From: Cenarchaeum sp.
GTDB taxonomy: Archaea > Thermoproteota > Nitrososphaeria > Nitrososphaerales > Nitrosopumilaceae
Direction: 5' to 3'
Length of the DNA: 64,000 nt
Assembly: GCA_965242695.1 (NCBI GenBank)
Contig: CBDESU010000001.1
Span: forward strand, 1,024,001 to 1,088,000
The notes beneath the pieces were generated by a model. It searched no databases. It saw only the letters and a list, made by a program, of their open reading frames with translations, and was not told the DNA's origin. This document shows, piece by piece, positions 2,262 to 38,688 of the stretch (position 1 is the stretch's first letter; each line of letters opens with the position of its first letter). The position numbers were made by a program, and so were the translations under genes.

Positions 2262-2601
2262 GCATCCCCGCAGCCTCAAAACTTGGGCAAGGGTCTGTGG
2301 AGCTGTGCAGTGGCGCGCAGCGTGGCACAGGCAGGGACCGCGGCCGGCTGATCATCCCGCGCTTGACGGGGTATGGCGGAATGGCCCACGTCCAGCCCGC
2401 GCGCCTCTCGCCTCTCCCCCTGCACCCCGTCCGCGTCGACGGCCACGTCGACGGCCGCGCCGCCGTGTGATGCCAGCGGGCGGGTCGAACCTGCCATGGC
2501 CCCCGACAGGGAAGGGGCCGCTGCCAGGCATGGGCATGTGGCCGATGTGTCGCGCAGCGCCCAATCAAACGCATAAAGGCGGCACGCCGTGCACGGGGGG
2601 C

Positions 2602-3669
2602 ATGGACGGCGCAAAAACGGCCGCCGGCGCAGATGCGAACGCGCTGTGGGCGGCGGCCGCCGACGCAAGGGCGTGGAATGCTTCCATGCACGATCATGCG
2701 GCGTGGGTGGAGCGCAGGAAGGCATGGGCGATCAAGGCCGATGCCGACGAGTCGATGAGGCGGGCGGGCAGGGCATGCAGGCGGGCGGGCAGGGCGCTGG
2801 ACAGGATGGACGCGGGAGCGACAATGAAGGTGTCGGCGAGAGTGAGCCAGGCCGCCGATGCGTTGGAGCGGGCGGCCGATGCGTTCAGGCGATCGTCCGA
2901 GCTTAGCAAGGCGGCAGGAGTGGAGCTGTTGCGGGCATCCAGGGCACATGTGCGCTCCGGCAAACGCGCCGGAGCCGAGCGCATCCCGGAGGCGGAGCTG
3001 TTGCGGGCATCCAGGGCACATGTGCGCTCCGGCAAACGCGCCGGAGCCGAGCGCATCCCGGAGGCGGAGCTGTTGCGGGCATCCAGGGTATACGCGCGGG
3101 CCGCCGGCCTGCGGCGTGGCGTGGCCGCGGCCAGGCGGGCCTCAAGGTCGTACGACCACGCGATAGCTGCGTCCGATTTGGCCATCATCGCGCTTGACGG
3201 GACGGAGGCGCTCATGCGGGATTCCGTCAAGCTGGCAGAGGGCGCAGTCAAGCTGGCAGAGGGCGCGGCAGGGCAGCCCGATGCGGGCATCGTGTGGGAC
3301 GGCATCCGCAGCGCGCTGTCGTCGGCGCAGGACGGCCTGCGGGGGACCTCGGACTGGGCACGCGCGCTGTCGGAGGCGTCGGAGGAAGATGCGGGCAAGG
3401 CGGAACGGCGGGCGGCGAAGGTGCGGAAGCGGGCGGCCGCCGCTGCCGAGCGCTCGGCGGCAAGGGCGGCCGCCGCTGCCGAGCGCGGGCTGGACGACCC
3501 GGGCGCGCAAAGGGCCGCGGCGGCGTGGAACAAGGCCAGGGCGGCGGCCGGCAGGGTTGACGGGCGGCGGGATGCAAAGGCAGTGGCGGTCGAAAGGCGG
3601 CGGGCAGGTCGGGTCGCACGGGGGCGCCGCGGCGGCGACACGGGCGGCGGCACACATGATTCGGCATGA
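2602..3669 (+). CDS. Ala-rich helical family protein, copy 1 (with internal 72-bp duplication)
   Basis: N-terminal LWAAAADARAWNA..W..KADADESM and C-terminal PGAQRAAAAWNKA match the other copies; CATAAAGG about 25 bp upstream. Confidence 0.75.
   Translation: MDGAKTAAGADANALWAAAADARAWNASMHDHAAWVERRKAWAIKADADESMRRAGRACRRAGRALDRMDAGATMKVSARVSQAADALERAADAFRRSSELSKAAGVELLRASRAHVRSGKRAGAERIPEAELLRASRAHVRSGKRAGAERIPEAELLRASRVYARAAGLRRGVAAARRASRSYDHAIAASDLAIIALDGTEALMRDSVKLAEGAVKLAEGAAGQPDAGIVWDGIRSALSSAQDGLRGTSDWARALSEASEEDAGKAERRAAKVRKRAAAAAERSAARAAAAAERGLDDPGAQRAAAAWNKARAAAGRVDGRRDAKAVAVERRRAGRVARGRRGGDTGGGTHDSA
2922..3088 (+). repeat. 72-bp tandem duplication (24-aa unit ELLRASRAHVRSGKRAGAERIPEA x2 plus a partial copy)
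   Basis: Read directly from the sequence. Confidence 0.9.
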
Positions 3670-3857
3670 CAGTTTGTTTCGCCTCGACAGTCGCCCGTAC
3701 GGGCCAGATCAAGATTCAAGCGCCGGCGAGCGACCTGGCGTGCGGTCCGAGGCGGAGGATTGCGCCAGAGGAATCCCGGCGGGCGGTGCGGCGGATGCCC
3801 GCGGCCCGCGGCGGCGCACGGCGATGGGCAGATCTGCGGCAACGTCTGGCCACCCCG

Positions 3858-4436
3858 CTACCTTGACGCGGCAGGGATCTGTGGGGCGGCCGCGGGGTAG
3901 CGCACCGACGATGCCAGCACGGGCCGCCACTGACACCCCTCGGTCGTGTACTTGTCGCAGTCCAGGACGATGCCGATCTTGGGCGAGGTCAACTCGTCGA
4001 CTATGCCGCGGCACTGCTCGGCCGAGCGCCCTGACGCCAGCCCGCCGACCAGCTCGGCCAGGCCTTCGGTATCGGGCCTCATATGGCTGAAGACGATCAG
4101 GTAGGTGGCCGCCTTGATCCAGTCGGCGTCCTTGCCGGCGAGCAGGCGCAGGAGCCGTTCCCCGTCAAAGCCGTCCGGCAGCGGCGGCGCATCGCACCCG
4201 AGGCCGGCCCGCACACGCGGCACGGCCGACTCGAGATCGTTGTAGAGCCGCTTCGAGTACGGACCGTTCGAGAGCTTGTCGTCAAACACGTACCCGTGGT
4301 TCAGCCCGAGCCGGCCGGCTATGAGGGTGCAGTGGACCAGCATCCCCAGCTCGTCAAGCTTCTGGTCCTCGTCCGCGGGCGGAGACCTCCGGAGTAGCCC
4401 GCCGTCCACAAGGAGCCGCACAAGCGCATCCAGCAT
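3858..4436 (-). CDS. YwgA/SocA(Panacea)-like winged-helix protein, putative antitoxin
   Basis: GY.F..KL.NGPYSKRLYNDL resembles the GPYS..L..DL motif of YwgA/DUF4065-like proteins; adjacent to a PIN gene. Confidence 0.55.
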   Translation of the reverse strand: MLDALVRLLVDGGLLRRSPPADEDQKLDELGMLVHCTLIAGRLGLNHGYVFDDKLSNGPYSKRLYNDLESAVPRVRAGLGCDAPPLPDGFDGERLLRLLAGKDADWIKAATYLIVFSHMRPDTEGLAELVGGLASGRSAEQCRGIVDELTSPKIGIVLDCDKYTTEGCQWRPVLASSVRYPAAAPQIPAASR

Positions 4437-4545
4437 GGGCGGCGGCGCCTAGGCATTCCATATAGCCCTTTGCTCCTCCTAGATCGCCGTGCTACTGGCA
4501 AATATGGCCTTAAAAGGTAATATACTACAGGATTCGGTCCCCGGC

Positions 4546-5031
4546 ATGGTCGTTGTCGTGTACCTGGACACATGGATCTTGAGGGCATACGTGTCGAAAG
4601 ATTCCAAGGAGCGGCGCGATGCGGCCCGTCTGCTCGCCCGGCTCCAGTCGGGCGTCTATGTCGTAAAGGTGCCGCAGGTGATCATCGGCGAGGCGGTCGC
4701 GACCGTAATGAGAGACTACGACCCCGACGAGTGGGAAGAGGTGGTAGGCAGGATGATGCGGGCGATCGCAGATGTGGCCGATCCGGCCACCTGCCTTCCA
4801 CCCCTGGATACGGCGGTGGTCGAAAGGGCCGATCAGCTGAAGGCCCGCATCGTGGGACTGGCGGACACGGACGCCCTCTTGGCGGCGCAGGCGCTGAACG
4901 ACCCCCAGGCGCAAAAGGTAGTCACAAGGGACCACCTCCTCTCTACCTCGAACATTCTCAAAGCGGTGGTTCGCGAGATGATTGAGAACGGTGAGAGGGA
5001 GTTTAGCCTTAAATTCGGCGACAAAGTGTAA
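4546..5031 (+). CDS. PIN-domain (VapC-like) ribonuclease
   Basis: VYLDTWIL...IIGEAV...DTDALLAAQA...VVTRD acidic PIN motif pattern. Confidence 0.8.
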   Translation: MVVVVYLDTWILRAYVSKDSKERRDAARLLARLQSGVYVVKVPQVIIGEAVATVMRDYDPDEWEEVVGRMMRAIADVADPATCLPPLDTAVVERADQLKARIVGLADTDALLAAQALNDPQAQKVVTRDHLLSTSNILKAVVREMIENGEREFSLKFGDKV

Positions 5032-5425: not shown

Positions 5426-6004
5426 CTACCCCGGTACGGCAGGGATCTGCGGGGCGGTCGCAGGATAGCGCACCGACGACGCCAGTTCGGGCCGCCACTG
5501 CTTCCCCTCGGGCGCGTACTTGTCGCAGTCTAGGACGATGCCGATCTCGGGCGATGTCATCTCGTCGACTATGGCGCGGCCGTAGTCGATCGAGCGCTCC
5601 AGGATCTGCTCGCCGAGCCACGCGACAAGATTCTCGATGCTGGGCCGCATATGGCTGAAGACGATCAGGTAGGTGGCCGCCCTGATCCAGTCGGCGTCCT
5701 TGCCGGCGAGCAGGTGCAGGAGCCGCTCCCCGTCAAGGCCGTCCGGCAGCGGCGGCGCATCGCCCCCAAGGCCGGCCCGAGCGCGCGGCACGGCCTCTTC
5801 AAGATCGTCGTAGAGCCGATCCGAGTTCGGGCCGTTCAGGAGCTTGTCGCCGACCACGTACCCGTGGTCCAGCCCGAGCCGGCCGGCTATGAAGGTGCAG
5901 TGGACCAGCAGCTCCAGCTCGTCAAGCTTTTGGTCCTCGTCCGCGGGCGGAGACCGCCTGATCACCCCGCCGTCCATGAGGAGCCGCACGAGCGCTTCCA
6001 GCAT
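5426..6004 (-). CDS. YwgA/SocA-like protein, close paralogue of 3858-4436
   Basis: Near-collinear protein (ML.ALVRLL.DGG..RRSPPADEDQKLDEL...LAGKDADWI.AATYLIVFSHMRP). Confidence 0.6.
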   Translation of the reverse strand: MLEALVRLLMDGGVIRRSPPADEDQKLDELELLVHCTFIAGRLGLDHGYVVGDKLLNGPNSDRLYDDLEEAVPRARAGLGGDAPPLPDGLDGERLLHLLAGKDADWIRAATYLIVFSHMRPSIENLVAWLGEQILERSIDYGRAIVDEMTSPEIGIVLDCDKYAPEGKQWRPELASSVRYPATAPQIPAVPG

Positions 6005-6282
6005 GGGGCGGCGGCGCCTAGGGTTCGGTATAACTGCTCGCTTTGCGACGATCGTCGCACGCATGGGCGGGATCGGGATTCAAGCGTCGGCGTGCGGCGC
6101 GGCTCCGCCGGCCCATGCGTGTCGCCGCTCGCCTGCCCGAGCACGGCTCGCAGGTGCGTCACAGCGCACTCGCCCGCATTCCCTAGGATGGCTGTGGCCT
6201 TTCCCGCCTCGCTCCGGTCCTGCGCTCGGGACGGAGAGCCCCCTCCCCAAGGCTTTTACCGCCCGCCCACCGCACGCCCCGC

Positions 6283-7851
6283 GTGGAATCGGAAGAGGAC
6301 GCGCAGCGCGGGGCCAGAACCAGCGCCGGCGACGATGCCGCATCCGCGCCGATCGCCAGGCTGCTCGCCGAGAATAAGCACGCCGAGGCCGTCGCCGCAT
6401 GCGACCTCGCCCTGGCCTCGAACCCGGGCCACATCTACCTCTCCTCGGCGAGGGCCGCCTCGCTAAAGCATATGGGCCGCCTGAAAGAGGCCGCACGCGC
6501 ATTCGAGGATCTCGCAAAGCTGTGCCGCGCCGCGCTCGACTCGGATGCCGGCGATGCGGATGCGGCGGGGCACATGGGCCGCGCCCTGCTGGCGCTCAAC
6601 CGCTACTCCGAGGCCGCCGAGGCGGCCGAGGCGGCCATCAAGGCCGGCGCGTCCGGCGCCGAGATGCGCGTCCTCAGGGGCCGCGCCCTGTCCGGCACGG
6701 GGCGGCACGAGGATGCGCTAGAGTCGCACAGGGAGGCCGCGCAGATCGATCCGCGCAGCGCCGCCGCGTGGTCCGGCGCGGCCGCCGCGCTCAACGCAAT
6801 GACGCGCCACGCCGAGGCCGCGACGTACAGCGAAAAGGCCGCGCGCGCCGAACCGGGCAACCCCGTCCTGCTCGCGAACCTCGGGGACATGCTGCGCATG
6901 GGCAGGCGCTACGCAGAGGCCGCCGAGGCATGCGACAGGGCGCTTGCAATCGACGGCGCGTGCACCGAGGCGCACGAGGCCAAGGCGCGCGCGCTCCTCG
7001 AGCTCGGGCGCGTGCGCGATGCGCGCGTCTGCTGCCGCGACATGGTCCGCGCCAGCCCGAAGAGCGCCGCCGCGTGGGCCGCCAGGGGATCCATCCTGCA
7101 CGACATGGGCCTGCACAAAAAGGCCCTCGGGTCGGCCAGGCGCGCAATACGGACGGACCCCGGCTCGGCCGGCGCGCACGAGCTTAGGGCCAGGATCCTA
7201 GAGGCGATGGGGATGCCCGAGAGGGGCGCCGAGGCGTGCGACAGGGCGATTAAGGCCGACCCGCGCGGCGCTCTGGCCCGGGCCACAAAGGTGCGCCTGC
7301 TCCTGAGCATGGGCATGCATGCAGAGGCGCTAGAGTGCGCCGACGAGGCCGTCAGGCTAGACCCGGGCTCGGCCCGCGCGCACCTTGCCAGGGCAGAGGC
7401 CATGATGGCGCACCGGCGGCTCGAAGAGGTGGCGGCGGGCGCGGCCAGGGCCGCCAGGCTCGACCCCTCGATGCACAGGGCCCACGCGGCCGGCGCGGAT
7501 GCGCTCTGCGCGCTCGGGAGGCTCAAGGAGGCGCTCGAGCGCGTAGACGAGTCGATCCGGATCGATCCGGGCGAGCCATACCCGCACATGGTGAGGGGCA
7601 CGATCCTGGTCCGCATGGGGCGCCGCGCCGAGGGGATCAGGTCGTACGACAGGTCGATCGAGTGCGATATCTCGTACACGCCCGGCTACGTCATCAAGGC
7701 CATGATGATCGCGGCGGAAGGAAGGCGCAAGGAGGCGATCGCATGCTGCGATGCGGCCCTGGCAAACTGCCCGCCCGGGCCGGCCGGCGACTACGGCCGC
7801 ATGATGGCCAGGAGGCAGAGGGAGGAGATCATCCGCGGCGGGAAGGGCTGA
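6283..7851 (+). CDS. Tetratricopeptide repeat (TPR) protein
   Basis: Many 34-aa units of the form EA....D.A..IDP....A....G..L. Confidence 0.9.
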   Translation: MESEEDAQRGARTSAGDDAASAPIARLLAENKHAEAVAACDLALASNPGHIYLSSARAASLKHMGRLKEAARAFEDLAKLCRAALDSDAGDADAAGHMGRALLALNRYSEAAEAAEAAIKAGASGAEMRVLRGRALSGTGRHEDALESHREAAQIDPRSAAAWSGAAAALNAMTRHAEAATYSEKAARAEPGNPVLLANLGDMLRMGRRYAEAAEACDRALAIDGACTEAHEAKARALLELGRVRDARVCCRDMVRASPKSAAAWAARGSILHDMGLHKKALGSARRAIRTDPGSAGAHELRARILEAMGMPERGAEACDRAIKADPRGALARATKVRLLLSMGMHAEALECADEAVRLDPGSARAHLARAEAMMAHRRLEEVAAGAARAARLDPSMHRAHAAGADALCALGRLKEALERVDESIRIDPGEPYPHMVRGTILVRMGRRAEGIRSYDRSIECDISYTPGYVIKAMMIAAEGRRKEAIACCDAALANCPPGPAGDYGRMMARRQREEIIRGGKG

Positions 7852-7934
7852 GGGCGGGGCCGGCCTGGAATGGCGGGCCCCGGCGGCGGGCGGGGGCCGA
7901 AAGCCATAAATTGCACCGGTGCGGCCTCGGCGCG

Positions 7935-9350
7935 TTGGCGCAGGAGGCGGAGCAGGAGCGCAGGCCGGCGGGGCGGGGCGGCGGAGTGGGATCCGCGGCA
8001 TCCGCCCTAGAGGAACAGGAGTCGGGGGAGCAGAAGGTAGAGGTCGCGCACTGGTACATCGATCAAGACCTGGTCGACGACTACCTGTCCGTTCCGCATG
8101 TGACGACCATCCACGACATACTGTTCGAGATGGATCCTAGGTACGACGAGATGGTCATACGCAATGGCATCGAGCACGGCGGGTACCGGACGGCGCTCGA
8201 TGAACTCAAGGATCCTCCCCCGCACCATCCGCAGGGAATCTATGTCGTCGGCTACCGCGCGCGCATGCTCGAGCGCCTCGGCAGGTACGAGCAGGCAGAG
8301 GCGCTGTACCGCAGCGTGGTCGAAGAGCTGCCCGGGAGTCCTGTCGCCCACCTCGACATGGCAAGGGTGCTAGAGCAACTCGGCCGCGGAGAAGAGTCGG
8401 CGGCCGAGGTCGCCCGCGCGGGCAAGTTCATTCCAAACTATCGCAGGGCGTTCGAGGCCGGCATGCACCCCGACCCGCGCCAGCTGGATCCCTCCGCCGT
8501 CCCGCTCCGCCTGATCATACCAATGTCCGTAATCTCGGCGGCCGGAACGGTGCGCTCGAGGGCAGAGCTCTCGGCGGCATCGCTGCTCGTGCAGTCCGAG
8601 TGCGGGCTCGACCTGTACCCCCAGGCGGCGTCGCGACTGCCGGGCTGCGCCGGCCTCGGCGCCGACATGGGGAGGTTTTACCACCTTGTCGTCGAGGATA
8701 TCGTCTCGTACCCGATAAGAGGCGAGCCGACGTACTACTACGACCTCACCGACAGGGGGATCGACATGGTGCGCGAGCTCGGCGAGCGGGCGGACGGGAA
8801 CGAGGGAGGCGGCGGCGCGGCGCGCATCGCCGCATCTGCGCGCCGCATCGCCGGCATCGGCGCGTATGCCATTCTCGAAGAGGCCTGTCGCGGCGCCGCG
8901 GCCCGAGCCGGGCGCGAGCGTATCGGGCGCGCCGAGGCCCTGGCGGGACTGCGCGGGACGGCCGAGCGCATAATCGGCGAGATCGGCAACGGCATTGCGT
9001 TTGGCGGCAATCATGCGGCCGTGCTCGAGACCAAGGCCAGGCGCATACCAGACATGCTCTCGCAGGCGCGCGATGCGCCCGACGCGCAGTGGGACGTGGC
9101 CGCCGCCCTGGGCGGCGACATACTGGGCCTGTGTGCGCGCATCGCGTTCGACCAGCGGCCGCACCCGAGGTCGTACGCGCTAGGCCCCCCGTACCCCGAC
9201 ATCCGGGATCTGTACACTCTGCTCGTCGGGTACTGCAGGGAGAAAGGCATTGCCGAGCCCAGGATCGAGGTGTTGAAGATCGAGGAGCCTGCGCCCGAGA
9301 GTATCGAGGAGATTAGGCGCGACATGCTCAAGGTGATAGCCGGGTCATGA
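7935..9350 (+). CDS. TPR plus winged-helix (YwgA-like) fusion protein, translationally coupled to a PIN gene
   Basis: TTG about 25 bp after CATAAA; TPR segment (LERLGRYEQAEALY..PGSPVAHLDMARVLEQLGR); wHTH-like YYYDLTDRGIDM; ATGA overlap with the next gene. Confidence 0.6.
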   Translation: MAQEAEQERRPAGRGGGVGSAASALEEQESGEQKVEVAHWYIDQDLVDDYLSVPHVTTIHDILFEMDPRYDEMVIRNGIEHGGYRTALDELKDPPPHHPQGIYVVGYRARMLERLGRYEQAEALYRSVVEELPGSPVAHLDMARVLEQLGRGEESAAEVARAGKFIPNYRRAFEAGMHPDPRQLDPSAVPLRLIIPMSVISAAGTVRSRAELSAASLLVQSECGLDLYPQAASRLPGCAGLGADMGRFYHLVVEDIVSYPIRGEPTYYYDLTDRGIDMVRELGERADGNEGGGGAARIAASARRIAGIGAYAILEEACRGAAARAGRERIGRAEALAGLRGTAERIIGEIGNGIAFGGNHAAVLETKARRIPDMLSQARDAPDAQWDVAAALGGDILGLCARIAFDQRPHPRSYALGPPYPDIRDLYTLLVGYCREKGIAEPRIEVLKIEEPAPESIEEIRRDMLKVIAGS

Positions 9351-9958
9351 TCGTCATCTTCGACACGAACGTCTGGTACGCATACCACATGGACTTTATG
9401 GCGGTGAGCAGGGACGGGCGGGCCGTCAGGGTGCGGCGCCGCAACAGGGACGCGGTGGTCGCCGCGGTCGACGGTGCGATAGAGTCGGGGGAGGTTAGGA
9501 TTATAGATACTGTCGCAGTTGAGGTGCGCGGAGGCATGGAGGATGCGTTTAGGTCGGCTGCCAAGTCGGCCAACCCCGAAGCCGTTTATGATGACGAAAT
9601 TGCAGAGGATGCACTGGCAGGGTTCATGCCGCTGTACAAACGCTTTCGCATTCGCGACTACAAGGACTACCTGGACGACATCGAGTGCATGTATATTGAG
9701 ATATGGCGCGATCCAAGGATGGCCGGCGCGGTGGACCGGCGGCGGCGCATCAAGGAAAGGCACGGGCACGGGTCGGCGCGCCCCTCGCTGGCGACGCATG
9801 CAAGGGACTTTGCGATACTCTCGACGGCCGCCTACATGGCCGCGCGGGGGGAGTCGGTCAGGCTGGTCACATTCGACCACGACATTGTGGAGTTTGCCGA
9901 TGCGATCTACGAGCGGTTCGGCGTCGTCGTAGTCGACGGCGCAGGCCTGCAGCTGTAA
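9347..9958 (+). CDS. PIN-domain protein
   Basis: MIVIFDTNVW...VAVEV...RDFAILSTA...LVTFDHD. Confidence 0.8.
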   Translation: MIVIFDTNVWYAYHMDFMAVSRDGRAVRVRRRNRDAVVAAVDGAIESGEVRIIDTVAVEVRGGMEDAFRSAAKSANPEAVYDDEIAEDALAGFMPLYKRFRIRDYKDYLDDIECMYIEIWRDPRMAGAVDRRRRIKERHGHGSARPSLATHARDFAILSTAAYMAARGESVRLVTFDHDIVEFADAIYERFGVVVVDGAGLQL

Positions 9959-10358
9959 TCCCGGCGCAGCCAGGCGCGCCGCCGATGCGCTAGCCACTGC
10001 CGCGCTCGCGCCATCCTCGCACCGGGGGGTTTTTCCAGCTCTGCGGCGGCCTGTGCACGCTCGCGTGCGGCCTCCCAGGCCGACTCGACTTCCCGGCAGG
10101 AGCCCGCCCGCCCGCCCGAACCATGGGCCGCCTGCGCCGGCTGCCAGGCGCGGCGGCAGAGCGCCGAACATGCCGCATGCTCTGGCCGCGCAGTCGCATG
10201 CCCAGAGCCGCTCCCGCGCCCGCCCGCGCCCCGCCGCCCTTTGGGCACGCGGCGCCGGCCGATGCGGCGCCTTCCCCCGCTCCGATCCCTGCCTCCGGAC
10301 TCGATCGCCGCGCCCGCCGCGTCCAAGGTTTTTACCGGGCGCGCCGCGCCCGCCGCGC

Positions 10359-11966
10359 GTGGGACGCCGGCGGTCGCGGACGGGGATCGGGCCCCACGCA
10401 GGCAAAGCCAGCGACGGCGAAAACGCCCTGTCCCTGCCGATCGTCGAGCTGCTCGAGGGGCAGAAGTACGCCGAGGCCGTCGCCGCATGCGACCGCGCCC
10501 TGGCCGCGCACCCGGGCCACATCTACATCAGCTCGGCAAGGGCCATCTAGCTCAAGCACCTGGGCCGCGACGAAGAGGCCGCGCGCGGGTTCGAAGAGCT
10601 CGCAGGCCTGTGCCGCGCGACCCTCAAGTCTGACGCCGGCGATGCAGAGGCGGCCGAGCACATGGCCCGCGCCCTCCACATGCTCGGCCGCCACGCCGAG
10701 GCCGCCGTGGCGGCAGGGGCGGCCATCGAGGCCGGCTCGATGGGCGCCGAAATGCACGCGCAGAGGGGATGCTCGCTGTCCAATGCGGGCCGCCACGAAG
10801 AGGCGCTCGAGTCGTGCAGGGCGGCAGTCGGGATCGATCCGCACGACGGCGGCGCCTGGGCCGCCATGTCGCGCGTGCTCAACAGCATGGGCCGCCACTC
10901 AGAGGCCGCATCGTGCAACGCAAGGGCCGCGCGCGCCGAGCCGCGGGACGCCGGCCAGCTCGTCGGGCTGGGCTACTCGCTGTACAAGGCCGGCCGCCAC
11001 GCCGAGGCCGTCGAGGCGTGCGACGGGGCCCTTGCGATCGACGGCGCGAGCGCGGATGCGCACGCGGCCAGGGCGCGCGCTCGACGCGCTCGGACGCCGG
11101 CGCGATGCGCTCGCATGCTGCCGCGACATTGTCCGCGCGAACCCGAAAAGCGCGACCGCGTGGACCGCCAGGGGGTTTGTCCTGCAGGACCTGGGCCTGC
11201 ACAGGAGGGCCGCCAGGTCGCTCGGACGCGCGATACGGCTCGACCCCGGCCTGGCCGAGGCGCACGAGCGCAGGGCCAGGTCGCTCGGCGCCATGGGGCG
11301 GCACAAGGAGGCGGTTGCGGCGTGCAGGGCGGCCGCTGCCGCCGACCCGCGCAGGGCATCGGCGCGCGCAGAGCTGGCGCGCCAGACCTTCGAGGCCGGC
11401 CGCCACGCCGAGGCGCTCGGCCTGGCCGACGAGGCCATACGCGCCGATCCCGGCAGGGCCGATGCGCACCTGGCCAGGGCCGAGGCCCTCTTGGCGCTCA
11501 AGAGGTACGAAGAGTCGGCGGCAAGCTCGGCGGAGGCGGCCAGGATATACCCTCCCATGCACAGGGCCCACGCGGCAGGGCCGACGCCCTCTGCTCGATC
11601 GGGCGCGATGCGGAGGCGCTCGAGTGCGCCGACGATGCGATCCGGATCGAGCCGGACGCGCCGTACTCGCACATGGTAAGGGGGACGGCCCTGAGCAACC
11701 TCGGGCGCCGCGCAGACGGAATGCGGTCCTGCGACAGGGCGATCGAGTGCGATGCCTCGTACGTGCCCGCCTACCTTTCCAAGGCCATGGACCTGGCGAT
11801 GGACGGCAGGCGCGAGGATGCGATCGCATGCTGCGATGCGGCCCTGGAAAACTGCCCCGCCGGGCAGTCCGGCCGCTTTGAGCGCGGGATGGCCACGAGT
11901 GCGAGGGAGATGGTCAGGGACTGGCCGTACGGCGCGCCGTACGGCGCGCCGGGCGATCGCATCTAG
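10359..11966 (+). pseudogene. Disrupted paralogue of TPR protein 6283-7851
   Basis: Same N-terminal motif (AEAVAACD.ALA..PGHIY.SSAR); in-frame TAG at 10548-10550; frame changes near 11080 and 11580; similar upstream CCAAGG.TTTTACCG. Confidence 0.8.
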
Positions 11967-13099: not shown

Positions 13100-13900
13100 C
13101 TACAGCACCTTTGCCGCGGCCTTTTCGGCCCTGCCGGCGGCCGCCATGGCCCTCCTCCACGCCTCGGCGGCCTCCCGCGCCTCCGGCAGGCCCCGCTCGC
13201 GCGCGGCCGCCGCCGCCGACCGCTCGGCCTCGGCGGCCATGTTCCTTCGCAGATCCGCTGTCATCCGCTCGTCGTCGACGGCCCGCCTGGCCTGCTCCAT
13301 CGACTCTGCGCACTCGCGCCCCGCCTCGTCCATCATGCCGGCAAGCATGGGCTCCATCGCGCCCATGTCTGCGCCGATCCCGTACCCGTCCTCCCCCCAC
13401 CGCGACGCGCCGGCGGCCCACCTGTCGGCCTGCTCGCCGAGCAGCCCCGCGCCAAGCCTCATGCGCCTTGACAGCATGGCCGAGCCGCGCGAGTTCGTGC
13501 GCGTCTTTTCCGCAAGCCCCGACGCGAGCTGCCCGTGCATGCCGTCGGCCGCATGCCCGTACGCGGCGGCCGCCTCGCTGTGCTCGGCCGCGGCCGCCCT
13601 GCTCAGCCGGGACGACCGCCTGAACGCGACCGCCGCTCGCCGCATCGCCGACGCGCCCTGCCTGATCGCATCAAGCGCCCGCCCCATGGCCTCTGCATCC
13701 ACGCCCTTGCGCGGATCCACCGCCTGGCCGGCCGCCTCGGCGGCGCGCCTTACGGCATCCTCGGACTCGGCCTTGGCGGCCCAGCCCTGCCGGTTCGCCT
13801 TTGACATCGCCCGCGCGTATATCGCCGCGGCCCACATCCTGGCATCGGCCGCGGACCGCCACACGACGGCGGCCGCCGCATCCCGCCCGCTGCCGCCCAT
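13100..13900 (-). CDS. Ala-rich helical family protein, copy 2
   Basis: VWRSAADARMWAA..WAAKAESEDA; C-terminal P.AREAAEAWRRAMAAAG; family promoter motif at 13923-13945. Confidence 0.75.
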   Translation of the reverse strand: MGGSGRDAAAAVVWRSAADARMWAAAIYARAMSKANRQGWAAKAESEDAVRRAAEAAGQAVDPRKGVDAEAMGRALDAIRQGASAMRRAAVAFRRSSRLSRAAAAEHSEAAAAYGHAADGMHGQLASGLAEKTRTNSRGSAMLSRRMRLGAGLLGEQADRWAAGASRWGEDGYGIGADMGAMEPMLAGMMDEAGRECAESMEQARRAVDDERMTADLRRNMAAEAERSAAAAARERGLPEAREAAEAWRRAMAAAGRAEKAAAKVL

Positions 13901-21962: not shown

Positions 21963-21987
21963 GCGCGCCGGCGGGAGCGGGCCGCCT

Positions 21988-26195: not shown

Positions 26196-29057
26196 TTATC
26201 CAGCCCCCTCTGGCGAATACTTGCCGTCATCCCTCCTCTCCTCCCCTGATCTGCGACCGTCCGCAAGTCGTAGGATCGCCTCCATGTTAGCCAGCTTCCA
26301 TGGTCCGTACCGAAGGTACGCTCGCTCGACAAGTCGACACCACCAGGGATCAAGCCCCGTGTCCCACGTGCCTGTCGGAAATGTAGGCCGGCCGTGCCCA
26401 TGATGCGTCCCGATCAGCCACATGACAAGGTCTGGATCGCTTGCTCGGCCCATGCCCTCCCCGCTCCTTGCTCTTTGTACGGAAAACCACTCGTGCCTGT
26501 ATCCGTCAGGCATGCACGCTAGTCTTTTGGCCGCGTCTTGCTGCCCCTTGCTACGATGATTACTCTTTGCGATCGCCGGTCGGTTTCTGACCCCCTCCTG
26601 CGTCGTCCCGTGGAGTACCGCTTGCATGATCCTCTCCCGCTTGCCAATGTCGTGTATCCGGGCGGCGATCTCAATGTCCAATGAATCAGAATCGCCTAGG
26701 CCCGACTTTTTGGCAAACTCGGCGGCAGTCCTTGCAACCCCCTCCAGGTGATCGTCAAGCGGAACGGTGCCGCCGCGCTTCCCGTCCTTCCATCCAATCG
26801 AATATTCGGAGATCATGTCGGGTGCGTCTTCAAATATGGGCTCTGCGGCCTTCCTGCATGCGGTAGGGCTCTGCGTCGTGGTAAAGGATACGCCAAATAC
26901 TGTCCCATCAGGCCTCCTGATTACCTCGGCCTTTCGATCGCGCCTGACAATGTCCCTCCATACCCCTGGCAAGCCCTCCGTCCTCGACAAGATGTCGACT
27001 ACAGATGAATCGTCATCCTCGTCGGCTATTGCATCGCGCAACACACTCCACACATCTCCTGTCGCCGCATTGCCGGCCGATGCGCCATCAGATCGCAGAG
27101 CGAGCTTGCCGCGCTGAACCAAGTGGGCCAGCATGCTAATGTCCGTGACAGGTTCGCCCGCATCCGAGCCTGTCCATCCATACTCGTCGCACCCACGATA
27201 TGACGATGGAACGACCACAGTGTCGCCGGGCCCCACATCCCCCGCACCGATGCGCTCGCACCTGCCCCGTGGCCCTACCCTGACGGCCACTTCCGGTCCC
27301 ACCTTGCCGGGTATGTCTGCGGCATACTGGCCTTCTATGTCGGCCAGGCTGGACGCCGTCCGGCGCCCGGTTGTTTTTTCCTTCGTAATATCCCCTTTGC
27401 CCTCGCGCATCCCCTCAAGCCAACTGCGCACGTGCCATATAGGCAGCTGGATAGACTCAAGCGCTGACGGCGGCACCGTATGCACAGACATCTCGACATC
27501 ATCCAACCCTACTCCAGCTCTCCACACCACGCTAACATCTGCCCGGTGGTAGTGTTTTTCCGGAATGCCGTGTAGGAACAGCGAAACGTCAGGATCCGGC
27601 GATCCCGGCGGCATTGTAGTGTGCCACGCCTTGACATATGCGGGCAACAGTGTTGCGGCACTCCTTTTTGGGGCAGACATCTCCTCAATCTCAGATCCTA
27701 GCGGCATTTGGAACGATCCAGGGCCAAAGTCTACGGTGTTATCACCGTCCGACATGTTAGTGAGCCACGACCACGTTGCAGCTGTGGCTTTTCCGTACAC
27801 GGGATCGTCCGCGTTGGCGCCGATATCTCTCCCGTCGGCGACTACCACGGCCGTCCCAATCACCTCCGCACCAATCCTGTTCAGCCTGCCAAACCGCTGC
27901 AGCAACGAGTCGAGGGGGGCCGCCTGCGTGAGCAATGCGTCAAACGTAATATCCGCACCAGCCTCTATGCACTGCGTCGCCACCGTCACGGACTTTTGGT
28001 GCCCGGACGACCCGGGACGGAGGTCGTCGACAATCCCTTCCACCAGTCTCTCCCTGTCAAGCGGCCGCGACCGGCCCGTGAGGAGGTACGCCGCGTATCC
28101 GTGCCGCTTCGCGCCACTGCGCACCTCCTCAAACACAGTCCTTGCCGCCCCCACCGTATTGACTACTATCCCTATTCGACGCGGGCCGTCCTTGGCCATC
28201 ATATCCTTGGCAATTCTTGCAAGCTTGTCCGGTGCCATATGTCGGCCCGCAGCCTGCAGAGTGGCCGGCTTGGGGCGGGACATGCGATCGCCCATCCCCT
28301 TGATCATGTACTGTCGATCATCCGGATGCGGAAACGTGGCGTCTGGATCATCTGCCTGCAGTGTGGCGCTCATCTGAACGACGGGCCCCTGCGTCTCCCA
28401 TCCCATTTTCCGACGCATGTCTTCGATCGAATGCAGCATCCGCACGAACGGCCCCGACAGGTGGGCCTCGTCGAGTATGTACAGCGTGTCAGTGCCGACA
28501 AGTCCTGCGTGGACGGGCCTCATCTTATTGCTCACGCCGTACCCGCGGAACAGCAACCTAGAGCCGATCTGATCGATGGTTGATAGTATGATGGTCGGAT
28601 CCGATGGCGAGAGATCCCACCCCGAGTCCTGCGGAATGCCGCCCCTAAGCCTCTTTACGTATAGCGGGTCCCCTGTCGATGCCGAGCGCAAGGCTTTTGC
28701 TGCCCATGCCGCCGCACCTTTCCCGCGTTCTTCCCGCAGCGCCTCCGCTATTTTTTTGGCGTGGTTGTACGAGTCGTCGACTGATATCCGCCGGTCTACA
28801 ATCATCGCGATTCGGAGCGGAGCGATCCTTTTTTCCCTCCGGAGGCGGCCCTGCGAGATATCGCATGCTAGGTGCCACACGGCTATGTCTAGCACGGATG
28901 TCTTGCCCGATGCCGTAGGCATTGAAATCGCTCTGGGCCATCCCGAGCAACGCACTCTTTCGGCCAGGGCCGACTGCCATTCAAACGGCTCCCTGTCGTA
29001 GCTGTGCACATCTCTGTAAAACGCTGCGAATGAGATCGTGTCGCTATCCATGACCAT
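26196..29057 (-). CDS. cas3: Type I-G Cas3 helicase-nuclease with C-terminal HD domain, operon A
   Basis: MPTASGKT, VDRR, GSRLLFRGYG, DEAH, QRFGRLNR; C-terminal HDIGK, YRHE, HHGHGRP, LRLAD. Confidence 0.95.
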   Translation of the reverse strand: MVMDSDTISFAAFYRDVHSYDREPFEWQSALAERVRCSGWPRAISMPTASGKTSVLDIAVWHLACDISQGRLRREKRIAPLRIAMIVDRRISVDDSYNHAKKIAEALREERGKGAAAWAAKALRSASTGDPLYVKRLRGGIPQDSGWDLSPSDPTIILSTIDQIGSRLLFRGYGVSNKMRPVHAGLVGTDTLYILDEAHLSGPFVRMLHSIEDMRRKMGWETQGPVVQMSATLQADDPDATFPHPDDRQYMIKGMGDRMSRPKPATLQAAGRHMAPDKLARIAKDMMAKDGPRRIGIVVNTVGAARTVFEEVRSGAKRHGYAAYLLTGRSRPLDRERLVEGIVDDLRPGSSGHQKSVTVATQCIEAGADITFDALLTQAAPLDSLLQRFGRLNRIGAEVIGTAVVVADGRDIGANADDPVYGKATAATWSWLTNMSDGDNTVDFGPGSFQMPLGSEIEEMSAPKRSAATLLPAYVKAWHTTMPPGSPDPDVSLFLHGIPEKHYHRADVSVVWRAGVGLDDVEMSVHTVPPSALESIQLPIWHVRSWLEGMREGKGDITKEKTTGRRTASSLADIEGQYAADIPGKVGPEVAVRVGPRGRCERIGAGDVGPGDTVVVPSSYRGCDEYGWTGSDAGEPVTDISMLAHLVQRGKLALRSDGASAGNAATGDVWSVLRDAIADEDDDSSVVDILSRTEGLPGVWRDIVRRDRKAEVIRRPDGTVFGVSFTTTQSPTACRKAAEPIFEDAPDMISEYSIGWKDGKRGGTVPLDDHLEGVARTAAEFAKKSGLGDSDSLDIEIAARIHDIGKRERIMQAVLHGTTQEGVRNRPAIAKSNHRSKGQQDAAKRLACMPDGYRHEWFSVQRARSGEGMGRASDPDLVMWLIGTHHGHGRPTFPTGTWDTGLDPWWCRLVERAYLRYGPWKLANMEAILRLADGRRSGEERRDDGKYSPEGAG

Positions 29058-30456: not shown

Positions 30457-30462
30457 GTGATG

Positions 30463-32080: not shown

Positions 32081-33753
32081 TCATCCGGCGCCGCTGCTAC
32101 GTGCCCCTCCGCCGCCCGGGGGCATCCATGCCGGCTGCCTCCCCGCCGCCGGCGGCCCGTCGAGTATGTTCCAGCCGGGATCTCCAATGGCGTACGTCAC
32201 GGCCCTGCCCAGCGACATGCCCCGCCTTCCGGCATTGGCCGCGATCGTCATCTTTCTCGACCCGACGACCATGCCGCGGTGCCCCTTGAACTGCACGTGC
32301 GCATCCATGTACCGCTTTGCGACGTTGCGTATGACCCTCTCCACGTCGTTCGAGTGCGCCGGCATGCCGTCGACCTGCGTGTGGTAGAACAGGCACGGCA
32401 TCGCATTCTCGTACCGCGTCCTGACAGGATGCTTGTCCCCGTACCCCTCGAGTATGGCGCACGCCGCGCGCTGCAGGGCGAGGGCCACGATCGGGGGCGC
32501 CGTGTTGATGCACGAGCTGACCCTGTAGAGGCACAGGAGTTCAAAGTAGGTGGTCGAGTCCCTGCGATATCCGGCGATCTCGCCGGCGGTCGGCCTGCGC
32601 CCCGACCGCGGCCGGGACTGCGGCGATGCAGCGGCGGCGCGATCCACGATTCCCGCAAGCCCTCCGCGCCGCGGCCGCCGGCCCCTTCCGGCCGCATCCT
32701 TCTCCTCCCTCCTCCCACTCCTCCCCTTTTTCAGCGCAATGTCTCCAGCCCGCGGCGGCTGCGGGAGGGAGGCGGCGGGCGCGGCAGCATCAGGGGGGCA
32801 GTAGGCGGCGGGCAGGATCGAGCGGATGGCCTTGACGGGGTCTTGGCAGTCGCTGCCGCCGCTGCCGCCGCCTCCTCCTCCTCCCTCGGCCGGCTCGACG
32901 GACGGCAGCTCGGCGCCGTCCACCAGCCGGACGTCCGGATTGGACCTGATCATGTCGACGAGCGGGGGGATTACAGCCCTCTCGACGGCCCTGAACTCGG
33001 CGCCGGGATCTATGCCGGCCTCTTCGGCGTGGTCGCCGAAAAGGGTGAGCCACACGTAGACGGGCTCTTCGGCGCTGCGCAGGTTGTGCACCGAGTCGGA
33101 CTGCCTGTTCCCGTCGGGGTAGGCGCCGTGCTCGTCCGTGACCTTTGGGAGGCCCCAGATCGGGCCGAGCGCCTCTTCAAGCGACGCCGCAGACCTGCTC
33201 GGGGCGGCCGTGATCAGCACGGCATTGCCGCTGCACGCGGCCACGATGTACGCCCACTTGCCCATGCTGCGCGCCATGGTCTCGTCGATCACGGCGTAGC
33301 CATTGGCGCATATGCTCTCGACTATACGCGGGATCAGGTGGGCCGCGGCGTCCATGCTAGCCGACACGGCGTTGGCGACCGCATTCTCGGACACGTCGAT
33401 CCCGTAGTACCACCGGATGTAGTTGGCCGCATCCTGGTAGGACATGTGCTCGGTCAGGTCCAGCAGGCGCTCCCTGACGATCGCGCCGAGCGCCGTTCCG
33501 GGGATCGAGATCGGCGTGCTCGCCTTCCAAGGCAGCCCGCACGCCGAGCAGCAGCCGACCTCGAGCTTTAGCGCTACGGCGCAGCCTCGCCCGACGCCGC
33601 CGATCCGGACGGCCTCCCTGGCAAGGTCCTGCAGGCGCCTGCCCCTGCCGTCGGTCGCTTCAAACTCCAAGAGCCATCCTCCGATCAGGTCGTAGAGCCG
33701 CTTGACGGCGTACCCGATTACGACATAGTCGGCGCCGCAGCACCACGAGGGCC
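32081..33753 (-). pseudogene. IS66-family-like transposase, C-terminal part
   Basis: Cys-containing CCSACG segment, AVIDET..W, VTDEHGAY, SNDVERVIR; cut off by the IS at 33754. Confidence 0.75.
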
Positions 33754-33809
33754 CAGTAGTTGCAGATGTGCCGCCACAATGCCCCCGTCGTGGCGGCCGG
33801 CCCTGCCCT

Positions 33810-35216
33810 CTACAGGGCAAAGAGCGGGCCGGCTGCGACCCTGGCCTTGGCCCGCTTTCTTGCAAGCAGCGCCGCCGTGGCCGCATCGGGGGTGAACAGC
33901 CGCGAGAACTCTTCGCAGGCCTCCGCCTCGTACGCGTCCTGTTCGCCCTTGCCAAGTATGGCCAGCCGCGTGGCCTCGGAAAGGAGTATGCGGCAGAAGT
34001 CCTTGTAGGTCATGGCGTACTTTTCCTTGTCCTTCCAGCCGTGCGTTCCGAGCCTGGGAGTCTGCACGTCTTGGATCGACTCGCCCTTCTTGGCCAGCCT
34101 CAGCGCCTTTAGCGCGCGGTCCGCCAGCACCCACAGGTTGGACGAGAGGAGCGAGTAGTGGAACAGGAACGTCCGTAGCGCCGGCGAGTTGCTGGTCGTC
34201 ATCGGCATTCCCTGCTCCGCCTCCCTGTAGCCGTTCTCGATGCGCTGCCGCTTCCTCATCTCTGCGCGCAGCATTGGAAGCGCCCTCCTCAGCATGGGGC
34301 GCGGCATGTTCGAGAAGAACGGCAGCGTGGTCTTTTTCGCCTTGCCGTCCCTGAACTCCTCGACCTCCCAAAAGGCGAGCGTGCCGGCAAACTTGCCCTT
34401 CTTGGACTTGACTATGTGCTCCGACAGGGCGGGGCGCTCGCCGCGCTCGTATTCGGCCATCGCCTTTTTGACCTTGGGCGTCATGCGCGCATACATCAGA
34501 AAGTACTCGCCCCTGTTGCCGAACTTGTTCATCGCATTCACGTTGTAGTACTCCCGATCGGCCGAGTAGTACAGGCAGAAGATGAGGCGCCTGGCGTTGT
34601 CGTCCAGGAGGTCCCCGACGTACTCGGACAGGGGGCGCCCCCTGCGCAGGATGCGCGACGACGTGTGGATCGTATACGGCCCCGAGACTATCGCCGACGA
34701 CACCGCGACGACAAAGGTCGACGTTCCGTTCTTGTACTTTGATCGCGCCGTGTAGTCGTCCCCCAGGTGCTCGCCGTAATACTCCATTTTGTGGCCGTCA
34801 ATCGAGCCTATCGGTCGCGCCGGGATCACGCCCGCCTCGCGCAGGGCCGCCACGGCGGCGTCGTCCACCGGCGCCCACCTTTCCTCCATGGCGTCGGGAT
34901 CGGGATCGGAGTTGATCAGCTCGCGCGCCCAGAGCGATGTCGGAGTGTCCAACTCGTCGATCCTCTCGATGCCGACCTGCCCGGCGGCCTCGATTGCGAC
35001 CAGTCTGGCCGCCTGGTGGCTGCACGAGCGATGCAGTGCTGCGGCCGCGAGGATGCTTGCAAATCCGGAAAGTCCGTGCAATGCATTGTAGCGCCTCGAA
35101 ATGGGAAAGTTGAATTTGGCCAGCAGGGCGTGGTCGAGCTTGAGCACGTTTTGCACAACGCGTATTGCATCGCGTAGTTCGTTATAGAACTTTCGCACGA
35201 TCCCCCCCCTGCACAA
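33810..35216 (-). CDS. DDE transposase (ISH3/IS4-like)
   Basis: SIDGHKMEYYG, ADREYYN, RKRQRIENGYRE; the start is uncertain. Confidence 0.85.
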   Translation of the reverse strand: MCRGGIVRKFYNELRDAIRVVQNVLKLDHALLAKFNFPISRRYNALHGLSGFASILAAAALHRSCSHQAARLVAIEAAGQVGIERIDELDTPTSLWARELINSDPDPDAMEERWAPVDDAAVAALREAGVIPARPIGSIDGHKMEYYGEHLGDDYTARSKYKNGTSTFVVAVSSAIVSGPYTIHTSSRILRRGRPLSEYVGDLLDDNARRLIFCLYYSADREYYNVNAMNKFGNRGEYFLMYARMTPKVKKAMAEYERGERPALSEHIVKSKKGKFAGTLAFWEVEEFRDGKAKKTTLPFFSNMPRPMLRRALPMLRAEMRKRQRIENGYREAEQGMPMTTSNSPALRTFLFHYSLLSSNLWVLADRALKALRLAKKGESIQDVQTPRLGTHGWKDKEKYAMTYKDFCRILLSEATRLAILGKGEQDAYEAEACEEFSRLFTPDAATAALLARKRAKARVAAGPLFAL

Positions 35217-36733: not shown

Positions 36734-36757
36734 CCCCCCCCCCCCCCCCCCCCCCCC
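36734..36757. repeat. C24 homopolymer
   Basis: Read directly; intergenic. Confidence 0.9.
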
Positions 36758-37155
36758 GTCAGGCGTCAGTGGCATGGGTGAGACCTGAGCTCTCGCTACA
36801 TGAGGGCATCTGGCGTGCACATTCAGGTCGGGCATACGTTGCACGCATTGGAGGGGGTGGTGGCGGTAAGACGCAGTTGACGACGGAGGCCAGAATGTCT
36901 ACCAGCTGGTGTACGATGCCCGACATCCATTGTCACTAGACAGAAATGCGAGCGGCGGGAATTTTGCTCACGTGTTGGACTAAACACCGGGCCCACATGG
37001 ATGCATGGACTGGGGGCAGGGCAGGTGCGAAGTGGATAGCGCAGGCTTACCGTCCATGTCACAGCCGCTGCACGACATGCTAGCCGATGCGGGGAGGGTC
37101 GATGCCAGGCTGCGGTACTGCGCGGCGGCGCGGCGGCCGCCTCTGAGGTCCCCGA

Positions 37156-37863
37156 GTGTCGCATCCTGCTCGTCCCCGCGAAGAGGGGCTGTACAAGGCC
37201 GTCGCAGGACTGGTCGGAGCATGCGCGAGGGCTGGGCCGTCGCTCCGTCCGAGTGGCGCGAGGGGCAGAGGCGGCGGCGCAGGGGCGACTGAGGCCGCAG
37301 CCGGTGCCGTCGCACTAGACGGATTTACGCGCATGCATGCATCCGCGCATTACGACGCGGGGAGCGGCCGCGTGGCCCTCGTAGATGTACACAAGTCGCG
37401 TAGGATGGCGACGGTCCTGCTGTTCGGACGCGGCGCCTAGATTGCAAGGCTAGCCGGTAGTGGGCATTCCGCGCGCCTGTACGTGTGCATCAAAGCGACG
37501 CCGGACGCGTTCGATCTGCTCGCCTGCATGGTGCATGTGGGCAGGCCTGCCGCCGTCCCGCGGTCGCAGTTCGGCGGTGATGAGGGCGCCTGTGCAGGTG
37601 CCGTAGAAGCGGCCGAGCTTGCGTGGCGACTCGGCATTGCTCCTGCGTACGGCGCCGAGGATGCGTCCGAGTGCCTTGCAAGGCTGCTTTCGTTGGCCAG
37701 CACGGCAGATGCCGGAATGGGGACCTTTGTCATCGAGAGAGGCTCCGCGCGCAGGCTGTTTGCAGCGGGGTTTGCTCGCCGCTACGCCAGCGGGCCGCCG
37801 TCCCACCGGCGACTCCTGCTGACGAGTTGCATCACGCATGTGCGTAGGGCCACGCGACACTGA
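37156..37863 (+). pseudogene. Unidentified coding-like frame split by TAG at 37438-37440
   Basis: ORFs 37156-37440 and 37483-37863 share a frame and read as protein-like; no family recognised. Confidence 0.3.
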
Positions 37864-38596
37864 ATTGTGGCGGATGCGGTAGTGCTACACGGCGCGGTCT
37901 CGGCCCACGCCACTCTTTTGGCCGCCGCCATCGCGCCGCCGAGTGCCGCGGCCGCCCGCCCGTCCTCGGCCGCCGCATCGGACATCTCGGCCGAGCTTGC
38001 CCGCTCCTCGTCGGCCCCCTCGTGCAGCATGGCCTTTTCGGCCAGCATTGTAGGCCTGTTGCCGTCCAAACGGAACTCGCCCGTCGCCCACGCGTCCGCG
38101 TTGTCCGCCCACTTGGCCGCCTCCAGCGCCAGCATGCCCTCTTCCCCGCCCGCCGCCTTCTTCCACCGGGCCGCTTCGCGCACCATCCCGCGCACCTCCC
38201 CCTTCAGCCTGCGCGCCGCCCGCGCCCTCTTGTCCTTGCCGGCCATCTCGTACGCCTCTGCGGCCCTGCCGTACGCGGCGGCCGCCGCCCTGCCGCGCCC
38301 GGCCGCCAGCCCGAACGCCCTGCCCGCCTTTTTCATTGCGGCGGCCTCGCGCCCATCGCCCCTCCAATCTCCCTCATCGCAGCTTCGACCGCGGGATCGC
38401 CCTCCTCAGCGACGCGCCCCTTCGCCTCCGCAACCCTCATCAGCCTGGCGAACATTCCCGCCCTGGCCGTCCACGCGCGGCCGTACGCCGAGAGCGCCGC
38501 GCGGTCGTGCGCGGCAGCCTCCCACGCGGATGCGGCGCCGGCCGCGGCCCAGACGGCCGCTACGCGATCGCCGTGTCCGCCAGTGCCGCCCGCCAC
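37782..38596 (-). pseudogene. Ala-rich helical family copy 10 (subfamily B), frameshifted near 38345 and with a shortened C-terminus
   Basis: Two ORF pieces together match copy 9; CATAAGG about 26 bp upstream. Confidence 0.75.
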
Positions 38597-38688
38597 GCCC
38601 GCCGGCCCGCGCGGCCCGTCCTTATGCGTAGGGGTAGTCTACGCGGCCGGCCGGCAGCGTGGCTCCGACAGGCCAAGCCGGGCCGCCA

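Follow-up and report, generated by a model that had tools for sequence, protein, structure and literature searches.

The window considered here, a stretch of 64,000 nucleotides (nt) of a Cenarchaeum sp. genome, carries a run of genes for similar alanine-rich proteins directly beside a CRISPR-associated (cas) operon. This arrangement raises the question whether these genes are a diversifying component of a defence island, as originally predicted from the DNA, or a family with another role. The window corresponds to C1:1024001-1088000 of a genome with two contigs (2.21 and 1.68 Mb; 68% and 67% GC). We named the proteins the alanine-rich helical (ARH) family, whose domain spans ~265 amino acids (aa). 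The results show that ARH is a real, new and lineage-restricted family, found in part of one archaeal genus and without detectable relatives. Its genes share a promoter-like element and are probably co-regulated. The defence-island setting belongs to this window, not to the family overall.

Translated open reading frames (ORFs) and a profile hidden Markov model (HMM) identified ten ARH genes with 11 domains at 2560-38640, the number originally predicted, and the protein motifs quoted then are present exactly or nearly so. An HMM built from ten window domains matched 34 of the 34,672 six-frame ORFs of the genome (E<=1e-3; best domain E 1e-97). Because its matches are confined to these few ORFs, the family goes beyond chance resemblance. 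In the ARH coding frame, the GC content of third codon positions (GC3) is 0.84-0.90 and GC1 exceeds GC2; open antisense frames show the mirrored pattern. The mean column identity of a ten-domain alignment is 39%. A quick tree yielded four window clades, with five domains in subfamily A, two plus the broken copy in B, two in C, and gene 2602-3669 alone; the three subfamilies first proposed were thus roughly right, one clade short. The predicted two-domain fusion (15492-17342), internal duplication (2922-3088) and broken copy were all borne out. The duplication, in gene 2602-3669, is an in-frame tandem repeat of a 72-nt unit in 2.3 copies that are 100% identical, and the same gene holds a second duplication, of 21 nt x2, at 3226-3266. 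The broken copy (37782-38596) carries one 1-nt and one 2-nt deletion relative to its closest paralogue, the gene at 24071, with 78% nucleotide identity. The ARH array is present in contigs of four sequencing runs from two studies, one run having a variant diverged by 1-2%.

ARH genes are preceded by a private element. The two strands of the 3.89-Mb genome carry 22 copies of the 14-mer AACGGCATAAAGGC with up to one mismatch. Of these, 21 lie upstream of ARH genes in the sense orientation, and in 21 of the 22 cases a start codon follows 20-23 nt beyond the 14-mer. Within the window, AACGGCATAAAGGC with up to two mismatches precedes seven of the ten ARH genes (0.34 expected), a count reached in none of 100 shuffles. 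The variant ACGCATAAGGACGGG stands before all three subfamily B genes, the broken one included (three matches versus 0.02 expected). The conserved element, 14-20 nt long, reads (GATC)GAACGGCATAAAGGCG, or ACGCATAAGGACGGG in subfamily B, and precedes all but a few ARH genes; it can also be written GATCGAACGGCATAAAGGCG, with the conserved flanks GATCGAAC...GGCGGC. ARH paralogues with a protein identity of no more than 25-35% share it, and variants of it precede ARH genes in a congener. Matching at three mismatches was discarded as dominated by noise (130 non-ARH matches).

In archaeal leaderless promoters, an A+T-rich box lies ~26 nt before the transcription start, a purine-rich element is found just upstream of it, and the start codon coincides with the transcription start. 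The motif-to-start spacing places the ATAAAG box of the ARH element ~26 nt from the ATG. Crudely called gene starts across the genome are richest in A+T at -28 to -24, and leaderless TATA promoters therefore look like the norm here. From this we infer that the element fits a family-specific archaeal promoter of the transcription factor B recognition element (BRE)/TATA type, giving leaderless mRNAs. Because of the promoter spacing, start codons were moved to 18609, 22893 and 24877, and possibly to a TTG at 23842. The sole copy of the 14-mer outside the family precedes a gene of a small unrelated 400-aa family with a similar box. This three-member family of ~400 aa (C1:1801602, 1804466 and 1575688) is not Ala-rich; its box reads CAACGGCATAAATRCG, with the ATG 20 nt downstream, and it could share a regulator with ARH.

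ARH proteins consist of 26-35% Ala and 10-15% Arg and contain 3-10 Trp (3-7 in single-domain proteins). They have no Cys-rich motifs, signal peptide, transmembrane (TM) segment or anchor, and the top 19-residue Kyte-Doolittle mean of 0.59-1.33 in nine ARH proteins indicates no hydrophobic segment. From an alignment of ten paralogues, AlphaFold2 returned an up-down five-helix bundle with a pTM of 0.86 and a pLDDT of 91, a level that Ala-rich helices easily reach. ARH proteins are thus modelled as soluble five-helix bundles. The helices span residues 7-60, 63-114, 118-164, 176-235 and 242-285 (44-60 residues each). Helices 3 and 4 are separated by a junction of ~11 residues, and this part of the model is the least confident and rich in indels. 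In 50 diverse members, conservation centres on W12, W21, W38, F91, Y112, P242 and W251, residues of the first two helices and of the beginning of helix 5. Variation is greatest, and indels are found, in helices 3 and 4 and in the C-terminal half of the fifth. Net charge ranges from -13 to +19 and the isoelectric point (pI) from 4.9 to 11.2 among 29 genomic ARH domains, so the basic pI of the window copies is no family trait; binding of nucleic acids, which that pI had brought to mind, was dropped for the same spread in charge. For the fusion at 15492-17342, AlphaFold2 gave two bundles joined by a disordered linker of ~40 aa, with a pTM of 0.43 at which the placement of the domains is unreadable.

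No known family was recognised when the genes were first described, and this held in every search made. Pfam returned no family for the nine window ARH proteins (E<=0.01), and a scan of 50 members at E<=1 gave 11 scattered single-member matches, no toxin family among them. NCBIfam held no match, PADLOC-DB 2.0 matched none of the nine proteins at E<=0.01, and the ESM Atlas offered no usable match. A profile search of the PDB gave compositional matches only (designed bundles, an MCP coiled coil, Rop), and Foldseek with the ARH model found nothing in PDB and BFVD at E<=1e-3. In an exhaustive VIA-align search, Z reached 11.0 for a designed bundle and then 10.7 for a fungal chromoprotein; all values lie below the Z of ~13 that unrelated helical bundles reach by the tool's own statement, and the matches are therefore unspecific. 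The folds first suggested, SNAP/TPR-like or PspA/ESCRT-like, were not borne out, the model being a five-helix bundle. Gamma-SNAP and Sec17 scored E 0.7-0.9 and TM 0.12-0.14 against the model, and no ARH protein matched TPR in a scan in which true TPR genes of the neighbourhood scored down to E 1e-37; ARH helices are also far longer than the short helices of TPR, whose helix-turn-helix repeat takes up ~34 aa in all. Neither Pfam nor NCBIfam returned PspA_IM30 or Snf7 (ESCRT-III), and the modelled bundle is closed, unlike their helical hairpin; these families are also missing from the fold-search lists, an absence that says little by itself. A second Ala-rich family (26% Ala, ~295 aa), with three members at C1:805825-807661 (genes at 805825 and 806783) and 826366-827241, was considered as kin and found unrelated (hhalign probability 0.1); a conserved TATA box of its own, GAGCGTATAAGAA, precedes the ATG by 24-26 nt.

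Genome-wide, 37 HMM domain hits reduce to ~32 domains after merging of fragments, in 12 clusters, all on contig 1. Lineage specificity, part of the original prediction, was upheld. One congener (G004, 3.7 Mb) has 12 ARH matches. No match was obtained in the remaining 39 relatives, of which three belong to that genus too (2 of 41 positive), or, at E<=1e-5, in any of 400 further genomes of the phylum (161 genera). Among 1.84 billion representative proteins, 97 cluster representatives matched at E<=1e-3 and 34 at E<=1e-30; a word-indexed search of 5.8 billion clusters gave 19 matches, all nameless; and a pattern-based search for related loci in collections of genome contigs and of metagenome contigs gave pattern matches and no confirmed ARH relative. 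No description of the family or its promoter motif was found in full-text searches, which covered part of the literature.

Most genomic paralogues have a near-identical metagenome counterpart, some of which may derive from samples used for the genome assembly, and the branches between paralogues are long (0.3-0.8 in the quick tree). Several copies are decayed, most intact. The ratio of nonsynonymous to synonymous substitution rates (dN/dS, NG86) is 0.49-1.23 for ten paralogue pairs, values in which dS is depressed by the extreme GC3, and of 224 paralogue pairs across the genome, whose median is 0.48, only one has a higher ratio than pair 19933/21111. The genome as a whole is rich in paralogues (228 pairs). 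We read the ARH ratios as relaxed or diversifying evolution; the diversification first proposed stands to that extent, and positive selection is not proven.

Fusions and operons hint at pairing between ARH proteins of different kinds. The fusion in the window joins subfamilies A and C, and a second, at C1:77169-78956, joins domains from two other clades. An ARH form of 635 aa occurs in the congener, and the matches to several metagenome relatives fall into two stretches. In the gene pairs 802314+803176 and 817257+818101, ~8-16 nt separate the stop codon from the next start, and the second gene has no promoter motif. Each gene of one pair is sister to its counterpart in the other, indicating that the pair was duplicated as a unit. 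Fusions and two-gene operons of different subfamilies thus suggest that ARH proteins may pair; a predicted complex of subfamily A with subfamily C scored 0.30, against a mark of 0.32.

Table 1. ARH genes of the window and their upstream elements (window coordinates)
Feature	Position	Strand	Details
ARH gene	2602-3669	+	355 aa; alone in its clade; divergent from giant adhesin-like gene at 1-2205 (-)
ARH promoter motif AAACGCATAAAGGC	2567-2580	+	2 mismatches to family 14-mer; ends 21 nt before ATG at 2602
ARH gene, subfamily C	13100-13900	-	266 aa; promoter 14-mer 13922-13935
Two-domain ARH gene	15492-17342	-	616 aa; N domain subfamily A, C domain subfamily C; promoter 14-mer 17364-17377
ARH gene, subfamily A	17764-18609	-	281 aa from second ATG; promoter 14-mer 18631-18644
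ARH gene, subfamily A	19933-20805	-	290 aa; protein used for structure model; promoter 14-mer 20826-20839
ARH gene, subfamily A	21111-21962	-	283 aa; promoter 14-mer 21984-21997
ARH gene, subfamily A	21988-22893	-	301 aa; longer ORF to 23256 over-extended; promoter 14-mer 22915-22928
ARH gene, subfamily B	23045-23854 (start maybe TTG at 23842, from promoter spacing)	-	269 aa; B-type promoter ACGCATAAGGACGGG at 23859-23873
ARH gene, subfamily B	24071-24877	-	268 aa from ATG 24877; B-type promoter 24896-24910; type I-G cas operon next upstream
Broken ARH copy, subfamily B	37782-38596	-	B-type promoter retained at 38615-38629

Most window copies lie on the minus strand at 13.1-25.0 kb, with one plus-strand copy at 2.6-3.7 kb and the broken copy at 37.8-38.6 kb (Table 1). 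The spacer at ~23930-24060, between the two intact subfamily B genes, is low in GC and holds C7...G11 runs (CCCCCCCAAATGACC...TCTGGGGGGGGGGG); it may form a long-loop hairpin, acting as a terminator, or be a slippage-prone tract.

ARH clusters are also found close to genes of a giant beta-helix/Big_5 adhesin-like family (ALP). The genome has 75 ALP genes encoding up to 8081 aa and taking up ~490 kb, ~12.6% of its length, and the window opens inside one of them, a beta-helix gene of 2628 aa (1-2205, minus strand). An ALP gene of >1000 aa is found no more than 1.5 kb from five of the 12 ARH clusters (0.67 expected; none of 5000 permutations reached five) and no more than 5 kb from seven (2.2 expected; p=0.002), in a set of clusters of which two flank one ALP gene and are not independent. 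ARH and ALP genes are interleaved likewise in the congener. Co-duplication of the two families was dropped as an explanation because the nearest ALP paralogues lack ARH neighbours. On contig 1, all ALP genes are on the plus strand up to ~1.004 Mb and all on the minus strand from ~1.018 Mb; ARH genes switch strand at ~12-13 kb of the window, at the peak of the cumulative GC skew, and the ALP/ARH switch looks replication-related.

The reading that we favour, tentatively and in the knowledge that it may well be wrong, sees ARH proteins as cytoplasmic bundles that pair heterotypically and act as scaffolds or adaptors, forming one regulon in an accessory genome that travels with ALP genes, and not as a defence system. 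Each gene would be transcribed separately from its BRE/TATA promoter as a leaderless mRNA, the family constituting one regulon. The proteins would remain in the cytoplasm and serve as interchangeable, hetero-pairing scaffolds or adaptors, with the variable helices 3-4 and the variable C-terminus setting what they bind. The family would belong to an accessory genome that evolves fast and goes with the genes for the giant adhesin-like surface proteins. Several points weigh against this proposal. Promoter, leaderless start and regulon were deduced from sequence, as is any putative ARH function; pairing and any binding partner are hypothetical; and the cytoplasmic location is assumed from the missing signal peptide alone. 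The structural model was built on ten paralogues whose Ala-rich helices favour a high pLDDT, and the unconserved net charge speaks against one common ligand such as nucleic acid. ARH dN/dS is high on an already high background. ALP genes next to ARH have their closest paralogues at sites without ARH, the relative orientation of the two is inconsistent (divergent, convergent or tandem), and the two clusters that share one ALP gene were counted separately; the link looks loose and may be mere co-residence in permissive regions.

How does the favoured proposal compare with a role in defence islands, as first supposed, in which ARH proteins would be diversifying virus sensors, decoys or, in a further variant, abortive-infection effectors? 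The window array does adjoin a cas operon, as stated at the outset: it is of type I-G (Cas8g-like 25207-26193, Cas3 26196-29057, then Cas5/6g and Cas7g). Furthermore, the broken copy adjoins an Mrr-like nuclease gene, the neighbours of other ARH clusters include M78/capP-like, type IIG restriction-modification, REase_II and PDC-S01 genes, and dN/dS is high. Neighbourhood enrichment for defence genes was examined genome-wide against nine random 20-kb regions of contig 1, in crude, GC3-based gene calls from which ALP genes, ARH genes and ORFs <70 aa or >1200 aa were omitted. Non-TPR PADLOC matches (E<=1e-5) made up 13 of 105 ARH-cluster neighbours and 6 of 126 control genes (Fisher p=0.052), but the difference was lost when matches were counted once per system (9 versus 6, p=0.29), and the predicted enrichment is not significant. 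Moreover, none of the nine ARH proteins is matched by PADLOC or carries an enzymatic or effector domain, four of nine ARH regions are free of any PADLOC match, and several clusters sit among housekeeping genes, with ARH genes beside those for seryl-tRNA synthetase, IlvD, TauE and polyprenyl synthase. A single promoter type across ~30 genes is atypical of defence cassettes, and the association with ALP genes is the stronger one. A defence role thus strikes us as quite improbable, and cas genes adjoining in one window do not make the family a defence component. The interleaving with toxin-antitoxin modules is weakly supported as well: a PIN_3 match at 4489-5031 (plus strand; E=0.011, below the Pfam cut-off) and a GNAT gene at 18645-19271 are present, but the Pfam scan recognised no antitoxin near the window ARH genes.

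The proximity to ALP genes, significant here and seen in the congener too, could instead mean that ARH proteins are exported, variable surface or host-interaction proteins working with ALPs, an archaeal analogue of PE/PPE with signal-less export. Heterotypic pairs, fusions and fast evolution are in keeping with this, as is the shared upstream element, conserved upstream regions being common in contingency gene families. We nevertheless consider it unlikely: no signal peptide, TM segment, anchor or export machinery was identified (no search was aimed at type VII machinery), ALP duplicates occur without ARH, orientation varies, and contig 2 has 21 ALP genes and no ARH. If the bundles acted on membranes, they would open and insert into or coat them, paralogues jointly, in the manner of ClyA-family, bipartite or tripartite alpha-pore-forming toxins (alpha-PFTs), or of apolipophorins. 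ClyA-family toxins have paralogous components encoded side by side and acting jointly, and the size, tandem paralogues, operonic pairs and missing signal peptide of ARH resemble bipartite and tripartite alpha-PFT loci; eight ClyA-family proteins matched the model (Z 7.7-9.5, 160-204 residues aligned), and the least confident, indel-rich ARH stretch, at the junction of helices 3 and 4, falls where ClyA has its membrane tongue. These Z values are, however, below the helical-bundle level of ~13, Foldseek gave E>=0.37 for these toxins and nothing at all at E<=1e-3, no Pfam toxin family was matched, and a maximum hydropathy of 0.6-1.3 leaves no hydrophobic head, all of which makes membrane activity very doubtful. 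A young Ala-rich family, perhaps arisen de novo from GC-rich DNA and spread by duplication under near-neutral drift, would explain the occurrence in part of one genus only, an Ala content of 26-35% that such DNA readily encodes, dN/dS of 0.5-1.2, several decayed copies and a paralogue-swollen genome (228 pairs, 75 ALP genes). Such a by-product would hardly keep an exact promoter core across paralogues 25-35% identical and across two species, most copies intact with near-identical metagenome counterparts (some maybe from the same samples), and the same Trp, Phe, Tyr and Pro residues in 50 diverse sequences; we think it improbable. The boldest combination, a new archaeal contingency system of ~30 bundle paralogues with a dedicated promoter and regulator, heterotypic pairs and signal-less exit, serving as ALP partners or membrane-active effectors, is a long shot; it would be the counterpart of PE/PPE pairs or bipartite alpha-PFTs.

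The window holds further features of note. A second set of type I-G cas genes lies at 41868-48420, and downstream of it a CRISPR array extends from 48688 to 63977, the window end, with a 72-nt period, a repeat of ~36 nt (GCTTCAATGGGGCCGCAACTTGACAGTTGCGGAAGG) and at least 212 units; Rfam gave nothing at the gathering threshold for this array. Transposase genes (IS66-like, ISH3-like, DDE_Tnp_1) occur at 32081-35216 and 40464-41819, in the intervals that separate the broken ARH copy from the cas operons on its two sides. A protein of 192-212 aa (10 paralogues, in tandem arrays) and a PIN_3-like protein (three paralogues) form a divergent pair that may be a toxin-antitoxin-like module; its genes are at 3858-4436 (-), 4489-5031 (+) and 5426-6064 (-), and also at C1:1013508-1017659. 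An overlapping pair encodes a TPR-containing protein (7335-9350, +) and a 203-aa protein with a PIN-like N-terminus, IFDTNV... (9347-9958, +), the latter without a Pfam or PADLOC match. The two have 14 and 8 paralogues by BLAST, and two tandem copies of the pair lie just upstream of the ARH array at C1:797 kb. The TPR gene at 10123-11966 (+) seems to be divided between two frames, as TPR-like sequence occurs in ORF 10123-11679 and in ORF 10662-11966, and may be frameshifted; one run (X5) has a 2-nt insertion within it, at 11072. Contigs of three runs (X1, X2 and X4) have a 7-nt insertion, GGCGGGG, at 12214, outside the ARH genes. The source is an archaeon by its small-subunit rRNA, which scores 1450 bits with the archaeal model and 1086 with the bacterial model; a methanogen was rejected, as no mcrA was found in the 96%-complete genome.

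If the proposal is correct, ARH is an orphan family of ~30 copies that has kept a core promoter of 14-20 nt while its proteins diverged to 25-35% identity. It would then be a natural case for studying the BRE/TATA-level wiring of an archaeal regulon, and the expansion of a young or orphan family alongside giant ALP genes in a genome about twice the size of its relatives'. Its practical value is moderate for now and would grow with data on expression and binding partners.

Among known systems, the highest scores belong to Alacoil-type and designed bundles: 8gl3 (Z 11.0, 187 residues aligned, profile E=3e-6), 4uos (profile E=1e-4) and Rop. ARH proteins share with them long up-down helices and an Ala-rich core, but have five helices of ~50 residues and conserved Trp, Phe and Tyr, and form a natural multigene family; these matches stem from composition and architecture and not from shared ancestry. 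Among natural proteins, the pink-coloured chromoprotein of Pleurotus salmoneostramineus is the top fold match (8ii8; Foldseek E=0.07, TM 0.41/0.51; VIA-align Z 10.7, 184 residues). At 11-13% identity the match is not significant, and 8ii8 is a fungal pigment-binding protein with no hint of a shared ligand. Cry6Aa, Hbl-B, ClyA, SmhA, YaxB, PaxB, MakB and MakA, the matched ClyA-family members, are elongated helical bundles of similar length, but ARH proteins have no sequence relationship to them and lack a hydrophobic head or tongue at the junction of the third and fourth helix. Mycobacterial PE/PPE proteins and other paired helical type VII substrates offer a further comparison, one that no search returned; no Pfam PE or PPE family matched an ARH protein. 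ARH differs in its archaeal host and in having one five-helix domain of ~265 aa in place of a two-helix protein paired with a five-helix one. PE/PPE and ARH are both lineage-restricted, Ala-rich and helical, and both are massively expanded in high-GC genomes, with members in adjacent heterotypic pairs.

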